A stretch of DNA of 64,000 nucleotides from Escherichia phage HY03. The notes under the pieces are model-generated. The model saw only the letters and a list, made by a program, of their open reading frames with translations. It ran no database searches and had not been told where the DNA came from. The stretch lies in the sequence record NC_031047.1. One strand, 5' to 3'. A program made the translations under genes and the position numbers. This document shows positions 3,379 to 55,084 of the stretch, piece after piece (the first letter of the stretch is position 1; the number at the start of each line of letters is the position of its first letter).

Positions 3379-3567
3379 ATGAAAATTGAAGCACTTAATC
3401 AAGAAGGAAATATCTACGTCATCATTAATGGTGATTTTTTCGTCGACATGGATGAAGTTACCAGTGAAGAACTTGTAGAACTTCTTAAGAAACGTTATAA
3501 TATGTGTGATGAAGTTGCAACTCACATGGCGTGTGCAATATTCTCTCTTTCATATGTGGTGGAATAA
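3379..3567 (+). CDS. hypothetical protein
   Basis: 62 aa; AGAGGAG RBS before ATG. Confidence 0.5.
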
Positions 3568-3770
3568 TGATTAGTATCGAACAAGCGGATAAGATTAAAG
3601 AATTGGTAGCTTTAATTCGTAAAGCAGATGAAGAGCTGATTGACTTTGCTTGGTATTCATCGGGTATTTCGAATAAAGGCATTAAAGACTTTGAAACTAA
3701 AGTGGATAATGCTATAGAAGCGTTAGATATGTTTCTTGATGAAATTATTGATCATAATACGAGAGTTTAA
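3567..3770 (+). CDS. hypothetical protein
   Basis: 67 aa; GGTGGA RBS; start overlaps upstream stop. Confidence 0.5.
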   Translation: MISIEQADKIKELVALIRKADEELIDFAWYSSGISNKGIKDFETKVDNAIEALDMFLDEIIDHNTRV

Positions 3771-7995: not shown

Positions 7996-8883
7996 ATGTC
8001 AGTAGCAATTAATAATGTCAATGCAGTAATTAAATCTTTAGTTAATAAAAAATCAAATGAATGGACTGTACTTCAACGCGACGAGTCAGATAAATTTTTT
8101 CATAAATTTAACCCAGTACTAAATTTAAATGTTATTGATAAAGATGTTCATGCTGAAATTTTAGATAAGTTTAAAGTTGATATTGGATTTGGATTAGAAA
8201 AACATTTACAACGAACAAACGGGTCTGGAATGCTTTTATCTAATCGCATCATGAAAGCCCTTAATAAAATTGGAGCATTGTCTCGTATTAATGCGAGTGA
8301 AATCCTTCGCAATTATAATAAAGGATACGACCTTTATGGTCGACTAATGCCGAAATTATCATTTGACCAAATGATCGCAGATTTGTGGGAAAATCAACGA
8401 CGATTATTAGCATTAGGCGCTCGATTGGCTAAAGGTCTAGATAAACAAATGATTTTTAAGACCAATAATACAGAAGACCTTAAATGCTTTAAATTTAGCA
8501 CTCGTGGAGATGATTATTACGTCAGAGCTCACTCTACAGATTATGTTAATATGGGGCATCATCTCTGTTTAGCTTTTGAAATTTTAAAAGAAGCTGGAAC
8601 ATTAGAATATGTGTCTGGTGCTAAATGTCCGATTGGTTCAAATTGCATTTTAATTTATCGCCCGGATGAATCCAGTTCATCTAAATTACCTACAAAACCT
8701 GTACCAGTTCGCAGTAATGAAAAACATTCTGAACAAATTGCTTATTTTAATAAGCAGATTGAAGAGCTAAATATTTCTATTCAGCAATATGATGATGAAA
8801 TTTTCAGACTATCTGGATTGAGTAGTAAAGCTAAATCTGAACGTGAAAAATTAATTAAAATTGTTGATTTACTTAAATCTTAA
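7996..8883 (+). CDS. hypothetical protein
   Basis: 296 aa from in-frame ATG after TGAGGAAAAT RBS. Confidence 0.6.
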   Translation: MSVAINNVNAVIKSLVNKKSNEWTVLQRDESDKFFHKFNPVLNLNVIDKDVHAEILDKFKVDIGFGLEKHLQRTNGSGMLLSNRIMKALNKIGALSRINASEILRNYNKGYDLYGRLMPKLSFDQMIADLWENQRRLLALGARLAKGLDKQMIFKTNNTEDLKCFKFSTRGDDYYVRAHSTDYVNMGHHLCLAFEILKEAGTLEYVSGAKCPIGSNCILIYRPDESSSSKLPTKPVPVRSNEKHSEQIAYFNKQIEELNISIQQYDDEIFRLSGLSSKAKSEREKLIKIVDLLKS

Positions 8884-8891
8884 GGAACACC

Positions 8892-9188
8892 ATGAAAACT
8901 CGTTCTCAAATTGAAGATATGGTTCGTAATGCCAGTTATACTCGTGATGTTATGACATTTTTGTGTGAAAATAATTTAGACCCTGATAAAGTTAATCGTG
9001 TTATTTATCACTTTAAGTATACGAATAGCAGTGAATGGTTACGTCATTTTAGTAAAGCGGGGTATATTACACAAATGACTGCTCGTGAACAGCTCACCGA
9101 TTTCTGTAAAACTATTGATTATAAAAATCCTCTATTTGTTCGAGGCGTTGGTCAAAGTAAGACTGATCTATCAACTGGATTTTTTTAA
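8892..9188 (+). CDS. hypothetical protein
   Basis: 98 aa; ends at TAA directly after a T7 run. Confidence 0.6.
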   Translation: MKTRSQIEDMVRNASYTRDVMTFLCENNLDPDKVNRVIYHFKYTNSSEWLRHFSKAGYITQMTAREQLTDFCKTIDYKNPLFVRGVGQSKTDLSTGFF

Positions 9189-9915
9189 TCCAAATCATTA
9201 TCGTCTTGAATGGAGATTTATTGCTTTATTCCGTAAACAATTAAAGCAAATTTTGTCTACTGCTAGTCGATTAAAAGGCTCTGATATTAACTTAAAGAAT
9301 CTGAAATTTGATGGTTATACTCTTCAGATGGAAGTAAGACCGTTAAAAGAAAATAATAGAACTGCACGAATTAGCTTTAAACCTAATACAAAAAATTCTC
9401 TTTCAATTTGCGAATGCCTTAAATCGCAGTTGACAGAAGCATTTAAGTATATGGATGTTGTTGCTGCTGTTCAATCTAAGATTTTACCTCGTTTTGAGCG
9501 AAATTGGGAACATACAACAACATATGAACTTGATATGATCGTTTCATTTAAATATGAATTTTTGAGAAAGGATGAAATTGTTCAAGAGAAAAAGCAGGAA
9601 GTGCAAGATACCTTAAATTCATCTAATTACTCATCAAACGATCCTAAATTTTGGATGTATAGCTCAAGCAATATAGATGCATGTAAACTTAATAAAGTGA
9701 GTTTTCTTCCTACTGAAAATTCAAATTTTAAACCTGTTGAAAAATGGCACGCGGATGCGATTGAGAAGTCTATCAAGGCAGTAGATGATGAACTCGTTAA
9801 AGCAACTAATGAAGTGTTAGAAGCTGAAAAGATGCTAGAAAAAGCTCAAGAAAAAGTCAAAAATCTCACGAAGCAACGTTCTAAACTGAACAATGCACTA
9901 AATGCACTAAACTAG
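9085..9915 (+). CDS. hypothetical protein, start unresolved (possible frameshift fusion with 8892..9188)
   Basis: track ORF in +1 frame overlaps upstream gene by about 100 nt; no good RBS at in-frame ATG 9328 or TTG 9253. Confidence 0.35.
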   Translation: MNSSPISVKLLIIKILYLFEALVKVRLIYQLDFFNPNHYRLEWRFIALFRKQLKQILSTASRLKGSDINLKNLKFDGYTLQMEVRPLKENNRTARISFKPNTKNSLSICECLKSQLTEAFKYMDVVAAVQSKILPRFERNWEHTTTYELDMIVSFKYEFLRKDEIVQEKKQEVQDTLNSSNYSSNDPKFWMYSSSNIDACKLNKVSFLPTENSNFKPVEKWHADAIEKSIKAVDDELVKATNEVLEAEKMLEKAQEKVKNLTKQRSKLNNALNALN

Positions 9916-9944
9916 TTTACTTCGCCACAAGGATGTGGTATAAT
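9915..9944 (+). promoter_or_regulatory. T4 early promoter
   Basis: GTTTAC, 18 nt, TATAAT. Confidence 0.7.
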
Positions 9945-9972
9945 GTTCTTACTTTCTACTGAGGAGATTAAT

Positions 9973-10899
9973 ATGACTCGTAAACATTATATTGATTATT
10001 TTGACAGTCTTATTACTAAACACCGTAATTATCAGATCGGACGCAGAGCAGTAATCAATAATATTCTTCGTGATTTCCTTCAATATGTTGGCCAGGAAAA
10101 TCATATCTGTAAAGATACTCAAAACGCTTATTCTCATTCGTTAGGCAATTTGCTTCAATGGTTTAAACGTTCTCGTCTGTTATCTTCTACTGTAGCTAGT
10201 GATAACATTAAAAACTTTATGAAGCCGAGCTTCATTAAATCTGAGACATCTATAACCGATTTGGTTGAATTTACTATTGTTAACGATGTTAAAAAGACCC
10301 ATTTGGCTGATTGGTTATCTACCATTCCCGAAACTAAATTTGCTGATAAATTCGCTTGTCAATTCAATGACCAAGTGAATATGCTTTTTAAGCATGCTCG
10401 TAAACTATTTACCGCGGGCGATGACCGTACAAATACAGTTCATGTTAAGGATTGGGTTATTGCTGATGAAGTAACACGCAAGCCAGGTGGTTCATCAGTA
10501 TTAATTAATATCCAGGTTCCTTATTATTACTCACATAATCTCGGCACCATGACAGCTAGAGAAATTAATAAGCACAACAAAATTATTCGTTCGTTGTCTT
10601 ATAAACTCTGCACGATGGTGGAGATGATGGACGTAGTGGAAATGTATGACGAAACCGAAGATAATGGTTCAATGCTGTACAGTTCACGCATTCTAATTAA
10701 ACTGAAGAACCCTAATACATATAAGCAAGTTGTAAAAGAACCTAAAGCAGAAAAGGCTGATAATCTGAGTGAAGAACGTGAATATCTCAATGCTCGTTTG
10801 ATTGAAGTTGAAGCCCAAATTGCAGAACACACCAAATTGTTAAAAGCTCTTAATGCAAAAGCAAATGGTTTACGCAATGCTATTGAGGTATTGAAATGA
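9973..10899 (+). CDS. hypothetical protein with coiled-coil C-terminus
   Basis: in-frame ATG after GAGGAG RBS; track ORF 9943..10899. Confidence 0.6.
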   Translation: MTRKHYIDYFDSLITKHRNYQIGRRAVINNILRDFLQYVGQENHICKDTQNAYSHSLGNLLQWFKRSRLLSSTVASDNIKNFMKPSFIKSETSITDLVEFTIVNDVKKTHLADWLSTIPETKFADKFACQFNDQVNMLFKHARKLFTAGDDRTNTVHVKDWVIADEVTRKPGGSSVLINIQVPYYYSHNLGTMTAREINKHNKIIRSLSYKLCTMVEMMDVVEMYDETEDNGSMLYSSRILIKLKNPNTYKQVVKEPKAEKADNLSEEREYLNARLIEVEAQIAEHTKLLKALNAKANGLRNAIEVLK

Positions 10900-32037: not shown

Positions 32038-32121
32038 CATACAAGTAATATAAATCTATACTTATGAAAAAGAGATGATTCTGGACCCTTTGGATTCCCT
32101 AAAAATTTTTTTCACAAAACT

Positions 32122-35513: not shown

Positions 35514-36443
35514 ATGTCTATTGCAGATTTAAAATCCCGTTTGATTAAAGCTTCCACTTCTAAAATGACTGCAGAGCTTACTAAAAGCAAGTTCTTTAAT
35601 GAAAAGGATGTGGTTCGTACTAAAATTCCAATGCTGAATATTGCAATTAGCGGTGCGTTGGACGGTGGCATGCAGTCTGGTTTAACTATTTTCGCAGGGC
35701 CTTCTAAACATTTTAAATCTAATATGTCACTGACAATGGTAGCAGCTTATTTGAATAAGTATCCTGATGCTATCTGTTTGTTCTATGACTCAGAGTTTGG
35801 TATCACTCCGGCTTATCTTAAGTCTATGGGTGTTGACCCGGAACGAGTAATTCATACGCCAATCCAATCAGTTGAACAGCTGAAAATTGATATGGTGAAT
35901 CAGCTTGAAACTATTGAGCGTGGTGAAAAGGTTATTGTATTCATCGACTCAATTGGTAATATGGCTTCTAAGAAAGAAACGGAAGATGCCTTGAATGAAA
36001 AATCTGTGGCAGATATGACTCGTGCTAAATCACTGAAGTCATTATTCCGTATTGTTACTCCTTATTTTAGTATTAAAAACATTCCATGTGTTGCGGTTAA
36101 CCATACAATTGAAACAATTGAACTGTTTAGTAAAACCGTGATGACAGGTGGTTGTGTTATTGCTGGTACTAAAATCCAGATGTCCGATGGTTCTACTAAA
36201 GCAGTTGAAGATATTCGTCCAGGTGAACGTGTTAAAACCATGGTCGGTGATAATGAAGTAACTTATGTTTGGGACCCAGAAACTCTGGCTGAAGGTACTC
36301 CTGAATGTTTCGAAATTGAATTCGAAGACGGTTATAAAGTAACTACTTCAGATACCCACAAGTTCCTGGTAATGGTTAAAGACATTCCAACTTGGGTTGA
36401 AGCTAAAGATTTAGTAGCTGGAATGGATTGTGTTGTAAGGTAA
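35514..36443 (+). CDS. uvsX: UvsX recombinase N-terminal extein (213 aa) fused to N-terminal intein fragment (96 aa)
   Basis: matches T4 UvsX to ...FSKTVMTGG, then CVIAGTKIQMSDGS (intein block A) and TSDTHKFLV (block B); ends at double stop TAA TAA. Confidence 0.85.
   Translation: MSIADLKSRLIKASTSKMTAELTKSKFFNEKDVVRTKIPMLNIAISGALDGGMQSGLTIFAGPSKHFKSNMSLTMVAAYLNKYPDAICLFYDSEFGITPAYLKSMGVDPERVIHTPIQSVEQLKIDMVNQLETIERGEKVIVFIDSIGNMASKKETEDALNEKSVADMTRAKSLKSLFRIVTPYFSIKNIPCVAVNHTIETIELFSKTVMTGGCVIAGTKIQMSDGSTKAVEDIRPGERVKTMVGDNEVTYVWDPETLAEGTPECFEIEFEDGYKVTTSDTHKFLVMVKDIPTWVEAKDLVAGMDCVVR
36153..36440 (+). other. intein N-terminal fragment (Hint blocks A and B)
   Basis: starts at Cys codon directly after extein TGG; 96 codons. 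Confidence 0.8.
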
Positions 36444-36446
36444 TAA

Positions 36447-36488
36447 ATATGGGTACCGGACTAATGTATATTTTTGAGGTACCCATAT
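36447..36488 (+). promoter_or_regulatory. stem-loop occluding the endonuclease start codon
   Basis: perfect 11-bp inverted repeat ATATGGGTACC / GGTACCCATAT, 20-nt loop; right arm overlaps the GAGG RBS and the AT of the ATG at 36487. Confidence 0.65.
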
Positions 36489-37209
36489 GAATTTTGTCTA
36501 TAAAATTGTGTTCAACGATAGAATTAAAAACGGCACTCCGCCGTATTACTACATAGGAAGCAAGACAAATGCTTCTTATGTAGACGGTAAGATTATTGAC
36601 GCCCGTGGTCGCGAGTACTATGGCTCATCGAGATATCCCGGATATCATGATTTTATCAATAATGTTACTGTTGAAATACTGGAGCAATATGATGATATTA
36701 AACATGCTAAACTGCTAGAGCGCGAAAATTTCTATCAGAAACAAGTAAACGTTAAAACAAATCCAGATTATTTTAATTTGGATTATGCTTGTGGACATAA
36801 TTCATATGCTAATGCTGATTTTGCATCATACAAGCATCATATAACAGGTAAATGTATTCGTCTTGAAAGAAACCATCCGCTTGTTAAATCTGGTGTGTAT
36901 GTTGGCGTCACAAAAGGCGTGAAATCTTCTGATGAACACCGTAAGCACATATCAGAAGGTATTACAGGAGAAAACAATGGGTTCTATGGTAAGAAACACA
37001 CCAAAGAAACAATTAATGAAATATCAGAAAAAGCAAAGAAAAGATTAAAGCATTCTCATCCTAGACAAAAAGGCGTTATCATAAACGGTATTGAATACCG
37101 GGGCGTCAGACCTGCTGCAAGAGCGCTGGGAATTAATCCTAACACAATTATCAACAAAATTAAAGCTAACACAAAAGGATGGGCTTATGCAGTAGATGCA
37201 CGTGGTTAA
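36487..37209 (+). CDS. free-standing GIY-YIG homing endonuclease between the split intein halves
   Basis: 240 aa; VYKIVFNDRIKNGTPPYYYIGSK motif; ENNGFYGKKHTKETINEISEKAKK and C-terminal segment resemble I-TevI linker/DNA-binding region. Confidence 0.8.
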   Translation: MNFVYKIVFNDRIKNGTPPYYYIGSKTNASYVDGKIIDARGREYYGSSRYPGYHDFINNVTVEILEQYDDIKHAKLLERENFYQKQVNVKTNPDYFNLDYACGHNSYANADFASYKHHITGKCIRLERNHPLVKSGVYVGVTKGVKSSDEHRKHISEGITGENNGFYGKKHTKETINEISEKAKKRLKHSHPRQKGVIINGIEYRGVRPAARALGINPNTIINKIKANTKGWAYAVDARG

Positions 37210-37351
37210 GGCATTCCAATGCGAGTTCTTTACGGGTTCGCACTACATTCGAAGATATGGTAAAAGAATTTGGAATGAACGCGACAATCAAGATTATGCT
37301 TTCATGAAATATGTATATTGAAACTAGCTACTACGAAACACAAGGTAAAGT

Positions 37352-37456
37352 ATGAAAATTAAATCTGTTAAATCTGTTGGTAAAAAAGAAGTCTATGATT
37401 TGTCTGTTGCTGACGTAGAGCATTATGTTTTAGAAAATGGTATCGTTACACACAAT
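37352..37456 (+). other. intein C-terminal fragment (Hint blocks F and G)
   Basis: ends ...THN followed by Thr as +1 extein residue. Confidence 0.8.
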
Positions 37457-37999
37457 ACAGGCGTAATGTATTCGGCTGATACTGTATTCATTATCGGTAA
37501 GCGTCAGATTAAAGATGGTTCTGATCTTCAGGGGTATCAATTTGTTCTAAATGTAGAAAAATCTCGTACCGTTAAAGAAAAAAGTAAATTCTTTATTGAT
37601 GTTAAATTTGACGGTGGTATCGATCCTTATTCTGGATTGTTAGATATGGCTCTAGAATTAGGATTTGTAGTAAAACCAAAAAATGGCTGGTATGCTCGTG
37701 AATTTCTTGATGAAGAAACCGGCGAGATGATTCGCGAAGAAAAATCTTGGCGTGCAAAAGATACCAACTGCACTACATTCTGGGGTCCTTTATTTAAGCA
37801 TCAACCATTCCGAGATGCTATTAAACGTGCTTATCAGTTAGGTGCTATTGATAGTAATGAAATTGTTGAAGCTGAAGTTGATGAATTGATTAACTCAAAG
37901 GTTGAAAAATTTAAATCTCCAGAAAGTAAAAGTAAATCAGCAGCTGATTTAGAAACTGACCTCGAGCAGTTAAGTGATATGGAAGAATTTAATGAATAA
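37352..37999 (+). CDS. uvsX: C-terminal intein fragment (35 aa) fused to UvsX C-terminal extein (180 aa)
   Basis: own ATG and AAGGT RBS; VYDLSVADVEHYVLENGIVTHN (blocks F/G) then TGVMYSADTVFIIGKRQ... matching T4 UvsX C-terminus. Confidence 0.85.
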   Translation: MKIKSVKSVGKKEVYDLSVADVEHYVLENGIVTHNTGVMYSADTVFIIGKRQIKDGSDLQGYQFVLNVEKSRTVKEKSKFFIDVKFDGGIDPYSGLLDMALELGFVVKPKNGWYAREFLDEETGEMIREEKSWRAKDTNCTTFWGPLFKHQPFRDAIKRAYQLGAIDSNEIVEAEVDELINSKVEKFKSPESKSKSAADLETDLEQLSDMEEFNE

Positions 38000-49664: not shown

Positions 49665-50980
49665 CATTTGATGATTTGACAGAAGGCCAGAAAAATGCCT
49701 TTAACATCGTTATGAGGGCTATTAAAGAAAAGAAACATCATGTAACTATTAATGGACCTGCTGGTACCGGTAAGACTACTCTTACTAAGTTCATCATTGA
49801 AGCTTTAATATCTACGGGTGAAACTGGTATTATTTTAGCAGCTCCTACTCATGCAGCTAAAAAGATTCTTTCAAAACTATCAGGGAAAGAAGCAAGTACT
49901 ATTCATAGCATTCTTAAAATTAACCCAGTAACATATGAAGAAAATGTCCTCTTTGAGCAGAAGGAAGTACCAGATTTAGCTAAATGCAGGGTATTAATCT
50001 GCGATGAAGTGTCAATGTATGATAGAAAGCTATTTAAAATTCTGCTTTCAACTATTCCACCTTGGTGTACTATAATTGGAATAGGGGATAATAAGCAAAT
50101 TAGACCTGTTGACCCAGGAGAAAACACTGCTTATATCAGTCCATTCTTTACACACAAAGATTTTTATCAGTGTGAACTCACTGAAGTTAAACGCAGTAAT
50201 GCTCCTATTATTGATGTAGCTACTGACGTTCGCAACGGTAAGTGGATTTATAATAAAATTGTTGACGGGCATGGAGTACGTGGATTTACTGGTGATACCG
50301 CTTTACGCGATTTTATGGTAAATTATTTTTCAATCGTCAAATCTCTAGATGATTTGTTTGAAAATCGTGTAATGGCATTTACGAATAAATCTGTTGATAA
50401 GTTAAATAGCATTATTCGTAAAAAGATTTTTGAAACTGATAAAGATTTTATTGTCGGTGAAATTATTGTAATGCAGGAACCATTAATTAAAACATATAAA
50501 ATTGATGGAAAGCCTGTGTCAGAAATTATTTTTAATAACGGACAATTAGTTCGTATTATAGAAGCAGAGTATACATCAACATTTGTTAAAGCTCGTGGTG
50601 TTTCTGGAGAATATCTAATTCGTCATTGGGATTTAACAGTAGAAACTTACGGCGATGATGAATATTATCGTGAAAAGATTAAAATAATTTCATCTGATGA
50701 AGAGCTGTATAAGTTTAACTTATTTTTAGGTAAAACTGCAGAAACTTACAAAAATTGGAATAAAGGTGGAAAAGCTCCGTGGAGTGATTTTTGGGATGCT
50801 AAATCACAGTTTAGTAAAGTGAAAGCACTTCCTGCATCAACATTCCATAAAGCTCAGGGTATGTCTGTAGACCGTGCTTTCATTTATACGCCTTGTATTC
50901 ATTATGCAGATGCTGAATTGGCCCAACAACTTCTTTATGTTGGTGTTACCCGTGGTCGTTATGATGTATTTTATGTATGA
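49661..50980 (+). CDS. dda: Dda DNA helicase (SF1B)
   Basis: 439 aa; Walker A GPAGTGKTT; matches T4 Dda. Confidence 0.9.
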   Translation: MTFDDLTEGQKNAFNIVMRAIKEKKHHVTINGPAGTGKTTLTKFIIEALISTGETGIILAAPTHAAKKILSKLSGKEASTIHSILKINPVTYEENVLFEQKEVPDLAKCRVLICDEVSMYDRKLFKILLSTIPPWCTIIGIGDNKQIRPVDPGENTAYISPFFTHKDFYQCELTEVKRSNAPIIDVATDVRNGKWIYNKIVDGHGVRGFTGDTALRDFMVNYFSIVKSLDDLFENRVMAFTNKSVDKLNSIIRKKIFETDKDFIVGEIIVMQEPLIKTYKIDGKPVSEIIFNNGQLVRIIEAEYTSTFVKARGVSGEYLIRHWDLTVETYGDDEYYREKIKIISSDEELYKFNLFLGKTAETYKNWNKGGKAPWSDFWDAKSQFSKVKALPASTFHKAQGMSVDRAFIYTPCIHYADAELAQQLLYVGVTRGRYDVFYV

Positions 50981-51001
50981 TTAAATTTGAGGAAGCTATT
51001 C

Positions 51002-51247
51002 GTGGAAATAACTAAAGATCAGTTTTATCTTCTTCAAGATAAAGTTAGCGAAATTTATGAAATTGCTCATGGTAAAAATCGTAAAACTGTAAAAATTGAA
51101 TCTAGTAAGTTGATGCTTCAATTAGAAGAAATTGAACGAGATTTAATTGCGTTAGAATTCTTTTGTGGTGAAGTGAAAACTGTTACAATTAATGATTATG
51201 TTTTAGGCGAAATTAGCTATCTTTATGAGGCGGTTATTAATGATTGA
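51002..51247 (+). CDS. hypothetical protein (dexA.2 position)
   Basis: 81 aa from in-frame GTG after GAGGAAG; start uncertain. Confidence 0.4.
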   Translation: MEITKDQFYLLQDKVSEIYEIAHGKNRKTVKIESSKLMLQLEEIERDLIALEFFCGEVKTVTINDYVLGEISYLYEAVIND

Positions 51248-51482
51248 ATTAAGTTGGTGGCAGTTTAAATCTCTTATAACAAATGTTAAAGATGTCATTG
51301 AAGAAAATCCAGGTCCTGAAAATATTACTATTCGCGAAAAAGCTTCAAAGATAGTATACAGTCTTGAAGAGATACAAAAAGACATTGAATCTGTGGCAAA
51401 ATTTATTGATGAGCCCATTAATAAAGTTTATATTCAAGACTATACTGTAGGTCAAATTCGCGATTTAGCAAGGAAAATTTAA
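51240..51482 (+). CDS. hypothetical protein (dexA.1 position)
   Basis: 80 aa; paralogous to the upstream ORF. Confidence 0.45.
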   Translation: MIELSWWQFKSLITNVKDVIEENPGPENITIREKASKIVYSLEEIQKDIESVAKFIDEPINKVYIQDYTVGQIRDLARKI

Positions 51483-52165
51483 TGTTTGATTTTATTATAG
51501 ATTTTGAAACAATGGGAAGTGGTGAAAAGGCAGCTGTTATTGATTTGGCTGTTATTGCCTTTGACCCTAATCCAGAAGTAGTTGAAACATTTGATGAATT
51601 AGTTTCACGTGGCATTAAAATCAAATTTGATTTAAAAAGCCAAAAAGGACATCGTCTTTTTACTAAAAGCACTATTGAATGGTGGAAAAATCAGTCTCCT
51701 GAAGCTCGAAAAAATATTGCACCATCAGATGAAGATGTAAGCACCATTGATGGTATTGCAAAATTTAATGATTACATCAATGCACATAACATCGATCCTT
51801 GGAAATCTCAAGGCTGGTGCCGTGGAATGTCGTTTGATTTTCCAATTTTAGTCGATCTCATTCGCGATATTCAACGTCTTAACGGCGTTTCCGAGAATGA
51901 GCTTGATACATTTAAGTTAGAACCGTGTAAATTTTGGAATCAGCGTGATATTCGTACCAGAATTGAAGCGCTTCTACTTGTTCGTGATATGACCACGTGT
52001 CCCCTTCCAAAGGGAACTTTAGATGGATTTGTTGCGCATAATTCTATTCATGACTGTGCGAAAGACATCCTGATGATGAAGTATGCTTTGCGATACGCTA
52101 TGGGTCTTGAAGATGCTCCGTCAGAGGAAGATTGCGATCCTCTGTCTCTTCCAACAAAACGATAA
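51482..52165 (+). CDS. dexA: exonuclease A (DEDD-type 3-5 exonuclease)
   Basis: 227 aa; DFET exonuclease motif; matches T4 DexA. Confidence 0.85.
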   Translation: MFDFIIDFETMGSGEKAAVIDLAVIAFDPNPEVVETFDELVSRGIKIKFDLKSQKGHRLFTKSTIEWWKNQSPEARKNIAPSDEDVSTIDGIAKFNDYINAHNIDPWKSQGWCRGMSFDFPILVDLIRDIQRLNGVSENELDTFKLEPCKFWNQRDIRTRIEALLLVRDMTTCPLPKGTLDGFVAHNSIHDCAKDILMMKYALRYAMGLEDAPSEEDCDPLSLPTKR

Positions 52166-54826: not shown

Positions 54827-55084
54827 ATGAAATATGTTAATCGTTCTATCGCAGCATTAGTATTAGCAGTGTCTTTAGTAGGATGTACTGATGCTGATAA
54901 TGCAACCAAAGTTTTGTCTTCAAGCGGTTTTACTAATATTGAAATCACTGGATATAATTGGTTCGGTTGCTCTGAAAATGATTTCCAGCATACTGGATTT
55001 CGTGCTATTGGGACCTACTGGGCAGAAAGTAGAAGGAACAGTATGTTCTGGACTATTCTTCAAGGATTCGACTATCCGTTTTAA
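54827..55084 (+). CDS. putative lipoprotein (39.1 position)
   Basis: 85 aa; lipobox LVGC. Confidence 0.55.
   Translation: MKYVNRSIAALVLAVSLVGCTDADNATKVLSSSGFTNIEITGYNWFGCSENDFQHTGFRAIGTYWAESRRNSMFWTILQGFDYPF

Follow-up and report, generated by a model that had tools for sequence, protein, structure and literature searches.

An extra T in a homopolymer run splits an nrdC.5 ortholog in a T4-like phage sequence

Two overlapping open reading frames in the window, the 64,000-nt stretch of DNA that we analysed, are, as judged by homology, the two halves of one gene, an ortholog of T4 nrdC.5, split by one extra T in a run of seven. The seven-T state is, by comparison with the relatives and sequence collections we searched, private to this sequence. 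We favor, with moderate confidence, a reading in which the T7 run is a recent replication-slippage insertion that knocked out nrdC.5, a dispensable counter-defence gene. The finding amounts to a commonplace frameshift of one base, or to a miscall, in an accessory gene that is already known.

The window is part of a Tequatrovirus (T4-like) genome and is in the opposite orientation to the standard T4 map; its best public relatives share 95-97% identity with it. The interrupted gene sits in the nrdC-mobD block of small early genes, with the following features at and around the break.

8882-8885, + strand: Shine-Dalgarno sequence AGGA of nrdC.5, 6 nt 5' of the ATG at 8892; its anti-SD duplex of -6.1 kcal/mol is like those of neighbouring real starts
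8892-9188, + strand: 5' part of nrdC.5, codons 1-98, closed by a premature TAA; the fragment would end ...STGFF
9180-9186, + strand: T7 homopolymer, exactly seven bases by sequence count and, by alignment, one T more than the T6 or T5C tract of relatives
9186-9188, + strand: TAA stop generated by the extra T itself (TTT TTT AAT to TTT TTT TAA t), from sequence and alignment
9187-9915, + strand: 3' part of nrdC.5, codons 99-340 plus stop, in the +1 frame and without a start codon of its own, from tblastn and a start scan
T7-site cassette sequence: ACUGGAUUUUUUUAAUCC
T7-allele sequence string: GGATTTTTTTAATCCAAATC
Shifted (wild-type) peptide across the junction: ...TDLSTGFFNPNHYR

The sequence and the ORF listing agree with the original prediction of a T7 run at the junction of two overlapping ORFs: the 98-aa ORF at 8892-9188 terminates in ...ACT GGA TTT TTT TAA, and the +1 frame is open from a GTG at 9085 to the TAG at 9913-9915, its post-run portion (9187-9915) comprising 242 codons and a stop. 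The insertion brings an immediate stop after codon 98 and leaves the remaining 242 codons out of frame. Removing one T, which had been expected to fuse the ORFs into a protein of about 340 aa, gave a reading frame of 1023 nt encoding 340 aa. By tblastn, residues 1-98 of NrdC.5 from phage JEP6 matched frame 3 of the window with 96.9% identity, and residues 97-340 matched frame 1 with 95.9% identity. The downstream ORF had also been described as having no convincing start, which our scores bear out, as the GTG at 9085, the TTG at 9253, and the ATG at 9328 showed near-zero anti-SD pairing (+0.7, -0.1, and -2.5 kcal/mol, respectively). A further candidate, the TTG at 9148, scored -1.8 kcal/mol, so that no canonical start among those scored for anti-SD pairing in this frame was backed by a Shine-Dalgarno sequence; five of the six neighbouring real starts tested fell between -6.1 and -9.2 kcal/mol. 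The sole start with such a sequence in the downstream frame was a non-canonical ATT at 9220, preceded by GGAG at 9212-9215 (-6.4 kcal/mol).

A perfect 6-bp inverted repeat, TGGATT/AATCCA (9176-9192), encloses the site, with the T run mostly in the loop. This repeat is also found in relatives and forms the centroid hairpin in the RNA fold. Such a hairpin might favor slippage, or trouble in base calling, at this position.

The identity of the gene follows from profile matches to the translation with one T removed. The fused protein matched Pfam DUF7235 (PF23882) in one stretch, with residues 1-340 spanning positions 1-307 of the 307-position profile (score 406 bits, gathering cutoff 30; E 1.2e-121), and also matched phrog_2351 over its full length. 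Because the fused protein matches both families end to end, the overlap of the two frames is not a matter of chance. Members of the DUF7235 family are expected to be encoded by one uninterrupted ORF of ~335-342 aa, in place of which the window has 98 aa, a stop, and 242 codons in the +1 frame. The gene lies directly downstream of nrdC.6 in the nrdC-mobD block, collinear with JEP6, RB3, T4, CE1, and SP21535. Its counterpart in T4 (NP_049703.1; NC_000866, 50973-51995) is the same gene, with ~93% DNA identity to that of the window once one T is removed; it carries Pfam DUF7235 and is described, in Swiss-Prot style, as an 'uncharacterized 39.7 kDa protein in nrdC-mobD intergenic region'. At the site of the break, however, T4 has T5C and an uninterrupted frame, whereas the window has T7 and a frame interrupted after codon 98.

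T4 nrdC.5 is a non-essential early gene; when it is expressed, cells with the sirtuin defence Dsr1 can again be infected (PMC9391042). Our literature search found no renaming of nrdC.5, and no mechanism for it, beyond Srikant et al. 2022. A search of solved structures returned no informative relative of the protein (best E-value 0.26), and an AlphaFold2 model of a close homolog (P0001), built from a 33-sequence alignment, was of too low a quality to place domain boundaries or to support a search for similar folds (mean pLDDT 49.5, pTM 0.33). In many GenBank records, JEP6, CE1, and SG1 among them, the whole nrdC.1-nrdC.11 block is labelled 'thioredoxin', a label that appears to have been propagated from the gene-name prefix; NrdC.5 matches DUF7235 alone.

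The original prediction would have failed had orthologs formed two genes with a clear start for the second. We found the opposite: each intact relative has a single gene of 1008-1029 nt. The proposed comparison with T4 nrdC.4 and nrdC.5 held for nrdC.5 but not for nrdC.4, which is absent from this genome. A single CDS occupies this position in JEP6 (1023 nt), RB3 (1023 nt, labelled nrdC.5), T4 (50973-51995), and 310Ecol104PP (1020 nt, labelled '39.7 kDa protein in nrdC-mobD intergenic region'). All 15 intact relatives, consisting of JEP6, 310Ecol104PP, RB3, four IMG/VR genomes, CE1, SP21535, T4, and five metagenome contigs, have one open frame with T6 or T5C at the site. In the junction alignment, the sole difference is GGA-T7-AAT in the window versus GGA-T6-AAT or GGA-T5C-AAT in the relatives. 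An exact 30-mer with the T7 run was found in 0 of 50,697 phage records, compared with 107 for the T6 control, and no T7 pattern was found in IMG/VR or in the metagenome and genome collections. Within the 40 records listed out of 500 or more, only three features each lay under a query spanning nrdC.6, nrdC.5, and nrdC.4; thus, nrdC.5 is unsplit in those 40.

A protein search gave 56 clusters, 50 of which are 334-342 aa long and align with the query over its full length. Among the short ones, P0051 and P0053-P0055 run uninterrupted across GFFNPNHY. We had considered whether P0053 and P0054 (250-252 aa) might be downstream halves from other T7 genomes and rejected this, as they are N-terminal pieces, continuous across that motif.

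The residues flanking the cut (85-143) are almost all invariant in 34 homologs, and the break therefore falls in a conserved core, not in a linker. Compared with 10 relatives, the nrdC.5 of the window differs privately by H39Y and by one synonymous substitution at L112, with no other lesion and no extra stops. With only these two substitutions, the frameshift must be either very recent or not real. The gene has the marks of a recent frameshift pseudogene, being disrupted relative to intact orthologs, having no alternative start, and showing little secondary decay. A contingency locus would have a polymorphic tract that switches the frame; here the relatives have T6 or T5C, and the window is the lone out-of-frame case.

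Another T4-like phage, from a metagenome and represented by two sequences (L016, ENA ERZ28629209 scaffold_6; L017, Logan SRR7658682), likewise has an nrdC.5 broken by a 1-nt frameshift. The lesion differs, being a 1-nt deletion that lies ~40 nt 5' of the T run, and the run itself is T6 in that phage. This deletion is present in two separately made assemblies and is independent of the change in the window, indicating that nrdC.5 is lost naturally in the wild. In the same sequences (L016, 2070-3400; L017, 1931-3261), the 3' part of nrdC.5 is joined to a C-terminus of the nrdC.3/nrdC.4 type (P0056, Pfam Phage_T4_Y04OP); as judged by these matches, the gene is a hybrid of adjoining genes in the block.

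Long homopolymers are scarce in this genome. We counted 529 A4, 273 A5, and 55 A6 runs in the window and none of A7 or more; for T, there were 320 T4, 101 T5, and 19 T6 runs and two of T7 or more. Extrapolating from run lengths, ~36 A7 (0 present) and ~9 T7 (2 present) would be expected. The other T7, at 32106-32112, lies outside any + strand ORF of at least 45 codons. As runs of 7 or more are nearly purged, the T7 of nrdC.5 is an unstable outlier and not a maintained device.

We also examined private changes across the window. In comparison with four relatives, no run of at least 5 bases other than the T7 has a private length change. By tblastn, 2 of the 114 JEP6 proteins that match the window are split between frames, nrdC.5 and the small gene 39.1; the same region gave two frame splits for CE1, one for SP21535, and three for T4. 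Two frame splits are therefore ordinary for real genomes, as the published relatives show one to three. Gene 39.1 (ORF 54827-55084, lipoprotein-like) also has a private 1-nt insertion, with GG becoming GGG at 55010-55012, that moves its last ~24 codons out of frame. None of 235 matching phage records is identical at this insertion, and the top matches listed are all one base shorter. The insertions in nrdC.5 and 39.1 could both be real mutations, or the assembly could be slightly prone to insertions. The remaining private 1-nt indels of the window are intergenic. Separately, the ORF at 3531-3770 has a private 21-nt (2 + 19) insertion at 3652-3677 relative to JEP6, CE1, SP21535, and T4, which keeps the frame.

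If the T7 is real, one T would have been added to an ancestral T6 (GGA TTT TTT AAT to GGA TTT TTT TAA T), most likely by strand slippage at the homopolymer during replication, a Streisinger-type misalignment. Frameshift mutations at homopolymer runs in T4 arise by Streisinger slippage, with hot spots in rII at A6 runs. In nrdC.5, likewise, a run of six identical bases in a non-essential T4-type gene would have gained one base, although here the mutation is read only from comparison with relatives. The main competitor, which we judge less probable but a serious contender, is a sequencing or assembly artefact in which nrdC.5 is intact in the phage, with a true T6, and the consensus over-calls the homopolymer by one T. 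A T7 is the exact type of site that some platforms over-call, this one is unique among all relatives and collections, and the homopolymer lies inside a small hairpin-forming repeat. The gene is otherwise pristine, with two private substitutions, a lack of decay that suits an artefact as well as a very recent mutation, and the window carries the other private single-base insertion at 55010-55012. However, the window bears no sign of general error: private length changes are absent from its 55 A6 and 19 T6 runs, the 2 in 114 frame-split JEP6 proteins are of the same order as between published genomes, and the second insertion is in a GG dinucleotide, which is not a typical homopolymer-error site. 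Many more errors are expected in long-read-only assemblies of DNA containing glucosyl-hydroxymethylcytosine. We favor a slippage mutation over an over-call because the T7 is the lone private run change, the split count is ordinary, and nrdC.5 is naturally lost elsewhere.

Four explanations had been offered at the outset, and two of them, a recent pseudogenising indel and a sequencing error, are supported; programmed frameshifting and transcriptional slippage fare poorly, as the tract is not conserved and T7 is too short. Judged from these comparisons, we are not dealing with a programmed recoding device that has been conserved. We consider it very unlikely that recoding is functional here, with full-length NrdC.5 made at a set, useful level by +1 frameshifting at UUU_UAA or by slippage on U7; in one variant of this idea, the tract might serve as a reversible low/high switch on a counter-defence gene. 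The region of the stop at 9186-9188 does form a potential 'shifty stop' (UUU_UAA), in which the P-site UUU re-pairs perfectly with the +1 UUU, a stop occupies the A site, and the frameshift would give precisely the wild-type protein. Having UUU in the +1 frame is nevertheless an automatic outcome of the change from T6 to T7, the flanks are ancestral coding sequence, and no relative has T7 or two ORFs. Compared with prfB (RF2) and the 'shifty stops' CUU_UGA and CCC_UGA, the site lacks a conserved two-ORF layout and a conserved shift site among homologs, and its stop is UAA, not UGA. UAA followed by U is an efficient terminator. Unlike prfB, the site has no upstream SD-like stimulator beyond a GGA 3 nt upstream, which is an ancestral Gly codon in all relatives, and nothing suggests autoregulation. 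RNA folding of 9150-9270 revealed no stimulatory structure downstream (z = -0.94), and an Rfam search returned only sub-threshold noise. Unaided slippery codons do reach percent-level frameshifting in E. coli, as with CCC_UGA, for which >1% is seen in half of the genes with this ending (PMC5009743), and CCC-AGG-C, which reached 5% (PMC7022156). The argI UUU UAU is also reported to be frameshift-prone, but FSscan gives TAA an A-site score of 0.6, below the 0.9 of TAG and TGA (PMC2790909). Transcriptional slippage of the kind found in Thermus dnaX, IS elements, and Shigella mxiE is not matched by an unconserved run of 7, since the known bacterial genes use A/T runs of 9, sometimes 8 (PMC1088944), and this genome is almost devoid of runs of 7 or more. 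The absence of any T7 or two-ORF relative, a run shorter than 8-9, and the lack of an evolved stimulator together disfavor the programmed options. A parallel is offered by the G7 'savior' indels of herpes simplex thymidine kinase, which likewise involve a 1-nt indel in a 7-base run that leaves a dispensable viral gene nearly off; there the leak and its selective value have been demonstrated, whereas for nrdC.5 both are hypothetical (PMC5009743). A real T7 that gave a low but useful amount of wild-type NrdC.5 and reverted frequently to T6 would act as a reversible dimmer switch on an anti-Dsr1 gene, and hence as a homopolymer contingency locus in a lytic phage; we think this highly improbable. 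Least probable of all is a two-gene arrangement, in which the downstream 242 codons are translated separately after internal initiation or re-initiation beyond the TAA. The +1 frame is open from 9085, and GGAG at 9212-9215 precedes the in-frame ATT at 9220, but ATT is a rare initiator and is only 4 nt from the GGAG, while the canonical starts all lack a Shine-Dalgarno sequence. Moreover, every ortholog is one polypeptide, the cut falls in the most conserved block, and a start at 9220 or 9328 would lose 33 or 48 or more conserved residues.

For a phage with a slippage-derived T7, the main product of nrdC.5 would be an 11-kDa N-terminal fragment, with essentially no full-length protein. Such a recent loss, or strong knock-down, of nrdC.5 would be tolerated on hosts without Dsr1. 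At most a small leak would be expected, if peptidyl-tRNA-Phe moves from UUU to the +1 UUU when the A site holds UAA; alternatively, RNA polymerase could drop one U and so regenerate the wild-type protein. As the stop lies inside the run and comes from the inserted T, a +1 slip yields the exact wild-type protein with no aberrant residues, so that a real T7 would let unaided +1 frameshifting at UUU_UAA be studied cleanly in a natural setting. T4 depends on nrdC.5 to overcome Dsr1 (PMC9391042), and a phage with a real T7 should therefore be restricted by E. coli that carry Dsr1, such as ECOR17. Reversion should be easy, and T6 revertants that escape Dsr1 should arise. For annotation, a single frameshifted nrdC.5 (a pseudogene or 'sequence needs checking') should be entered at the locus in place of two hypothetical proteins.

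Downstream of the interrupted gene lie two further features.

9916-9944, + strand: promoter-like TTTACT-17-TATAAT with TG before the second hexamer; a consensus match only, in a region not enriched for such sites
9973-10899, + strand: nrdC.3-like gene, 308 aa, from blastn/tblastn against JEP6 and from phrog_1435

Given the candidate promoter, the next gene may not need read-through from nrdC.5. CE1 and SP21535 annotate a 957-nt ORF at the position of the nrdC.3-like gene, the length of the window ORF at 9943-10899. In T4, nrdC.5 is followed by nrdC.4, whereas in the window the nrdC.3-like gene comes directly after it and nrdC.4 is missing. In the alignment, a 17-nt stretch common to both genes (9976-9992) takes the start region of JEP6 nrdC.4 directly into the start of nrdC.3, which suggests that recombination between their similar 5' ends deleted nrdC.4. 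CE1 and SP21535 likewise lack nrdC.4 and share this layout.

Elsewhere in the window, uvsX is in two pieces (35514-37999), owing to a 1.3-kb insert and not to a frameshift.

35514-36443: uvsX piece 1, the RecA-like part followed by a Hint-like tail, CVIAGTKIQ...
36487-37209: 240-aa ORF between the uvsX pieces, with a NUMOD3 motif, homing-endonuclease-like
37352-37999: uvsX piece 2, which starts ...HYVLENGIVTHN and runs into the T4_UVSX_C domain

The Hint and intein Pfam matches of uvsX are below the gathering score. The layout resembles that of a split intein accompanied by a free-standing homing endonuclease. uvsX is uninterrupted in JEP6, CE1, and T4, and the same three-ORF layout is annotated in SP21535.
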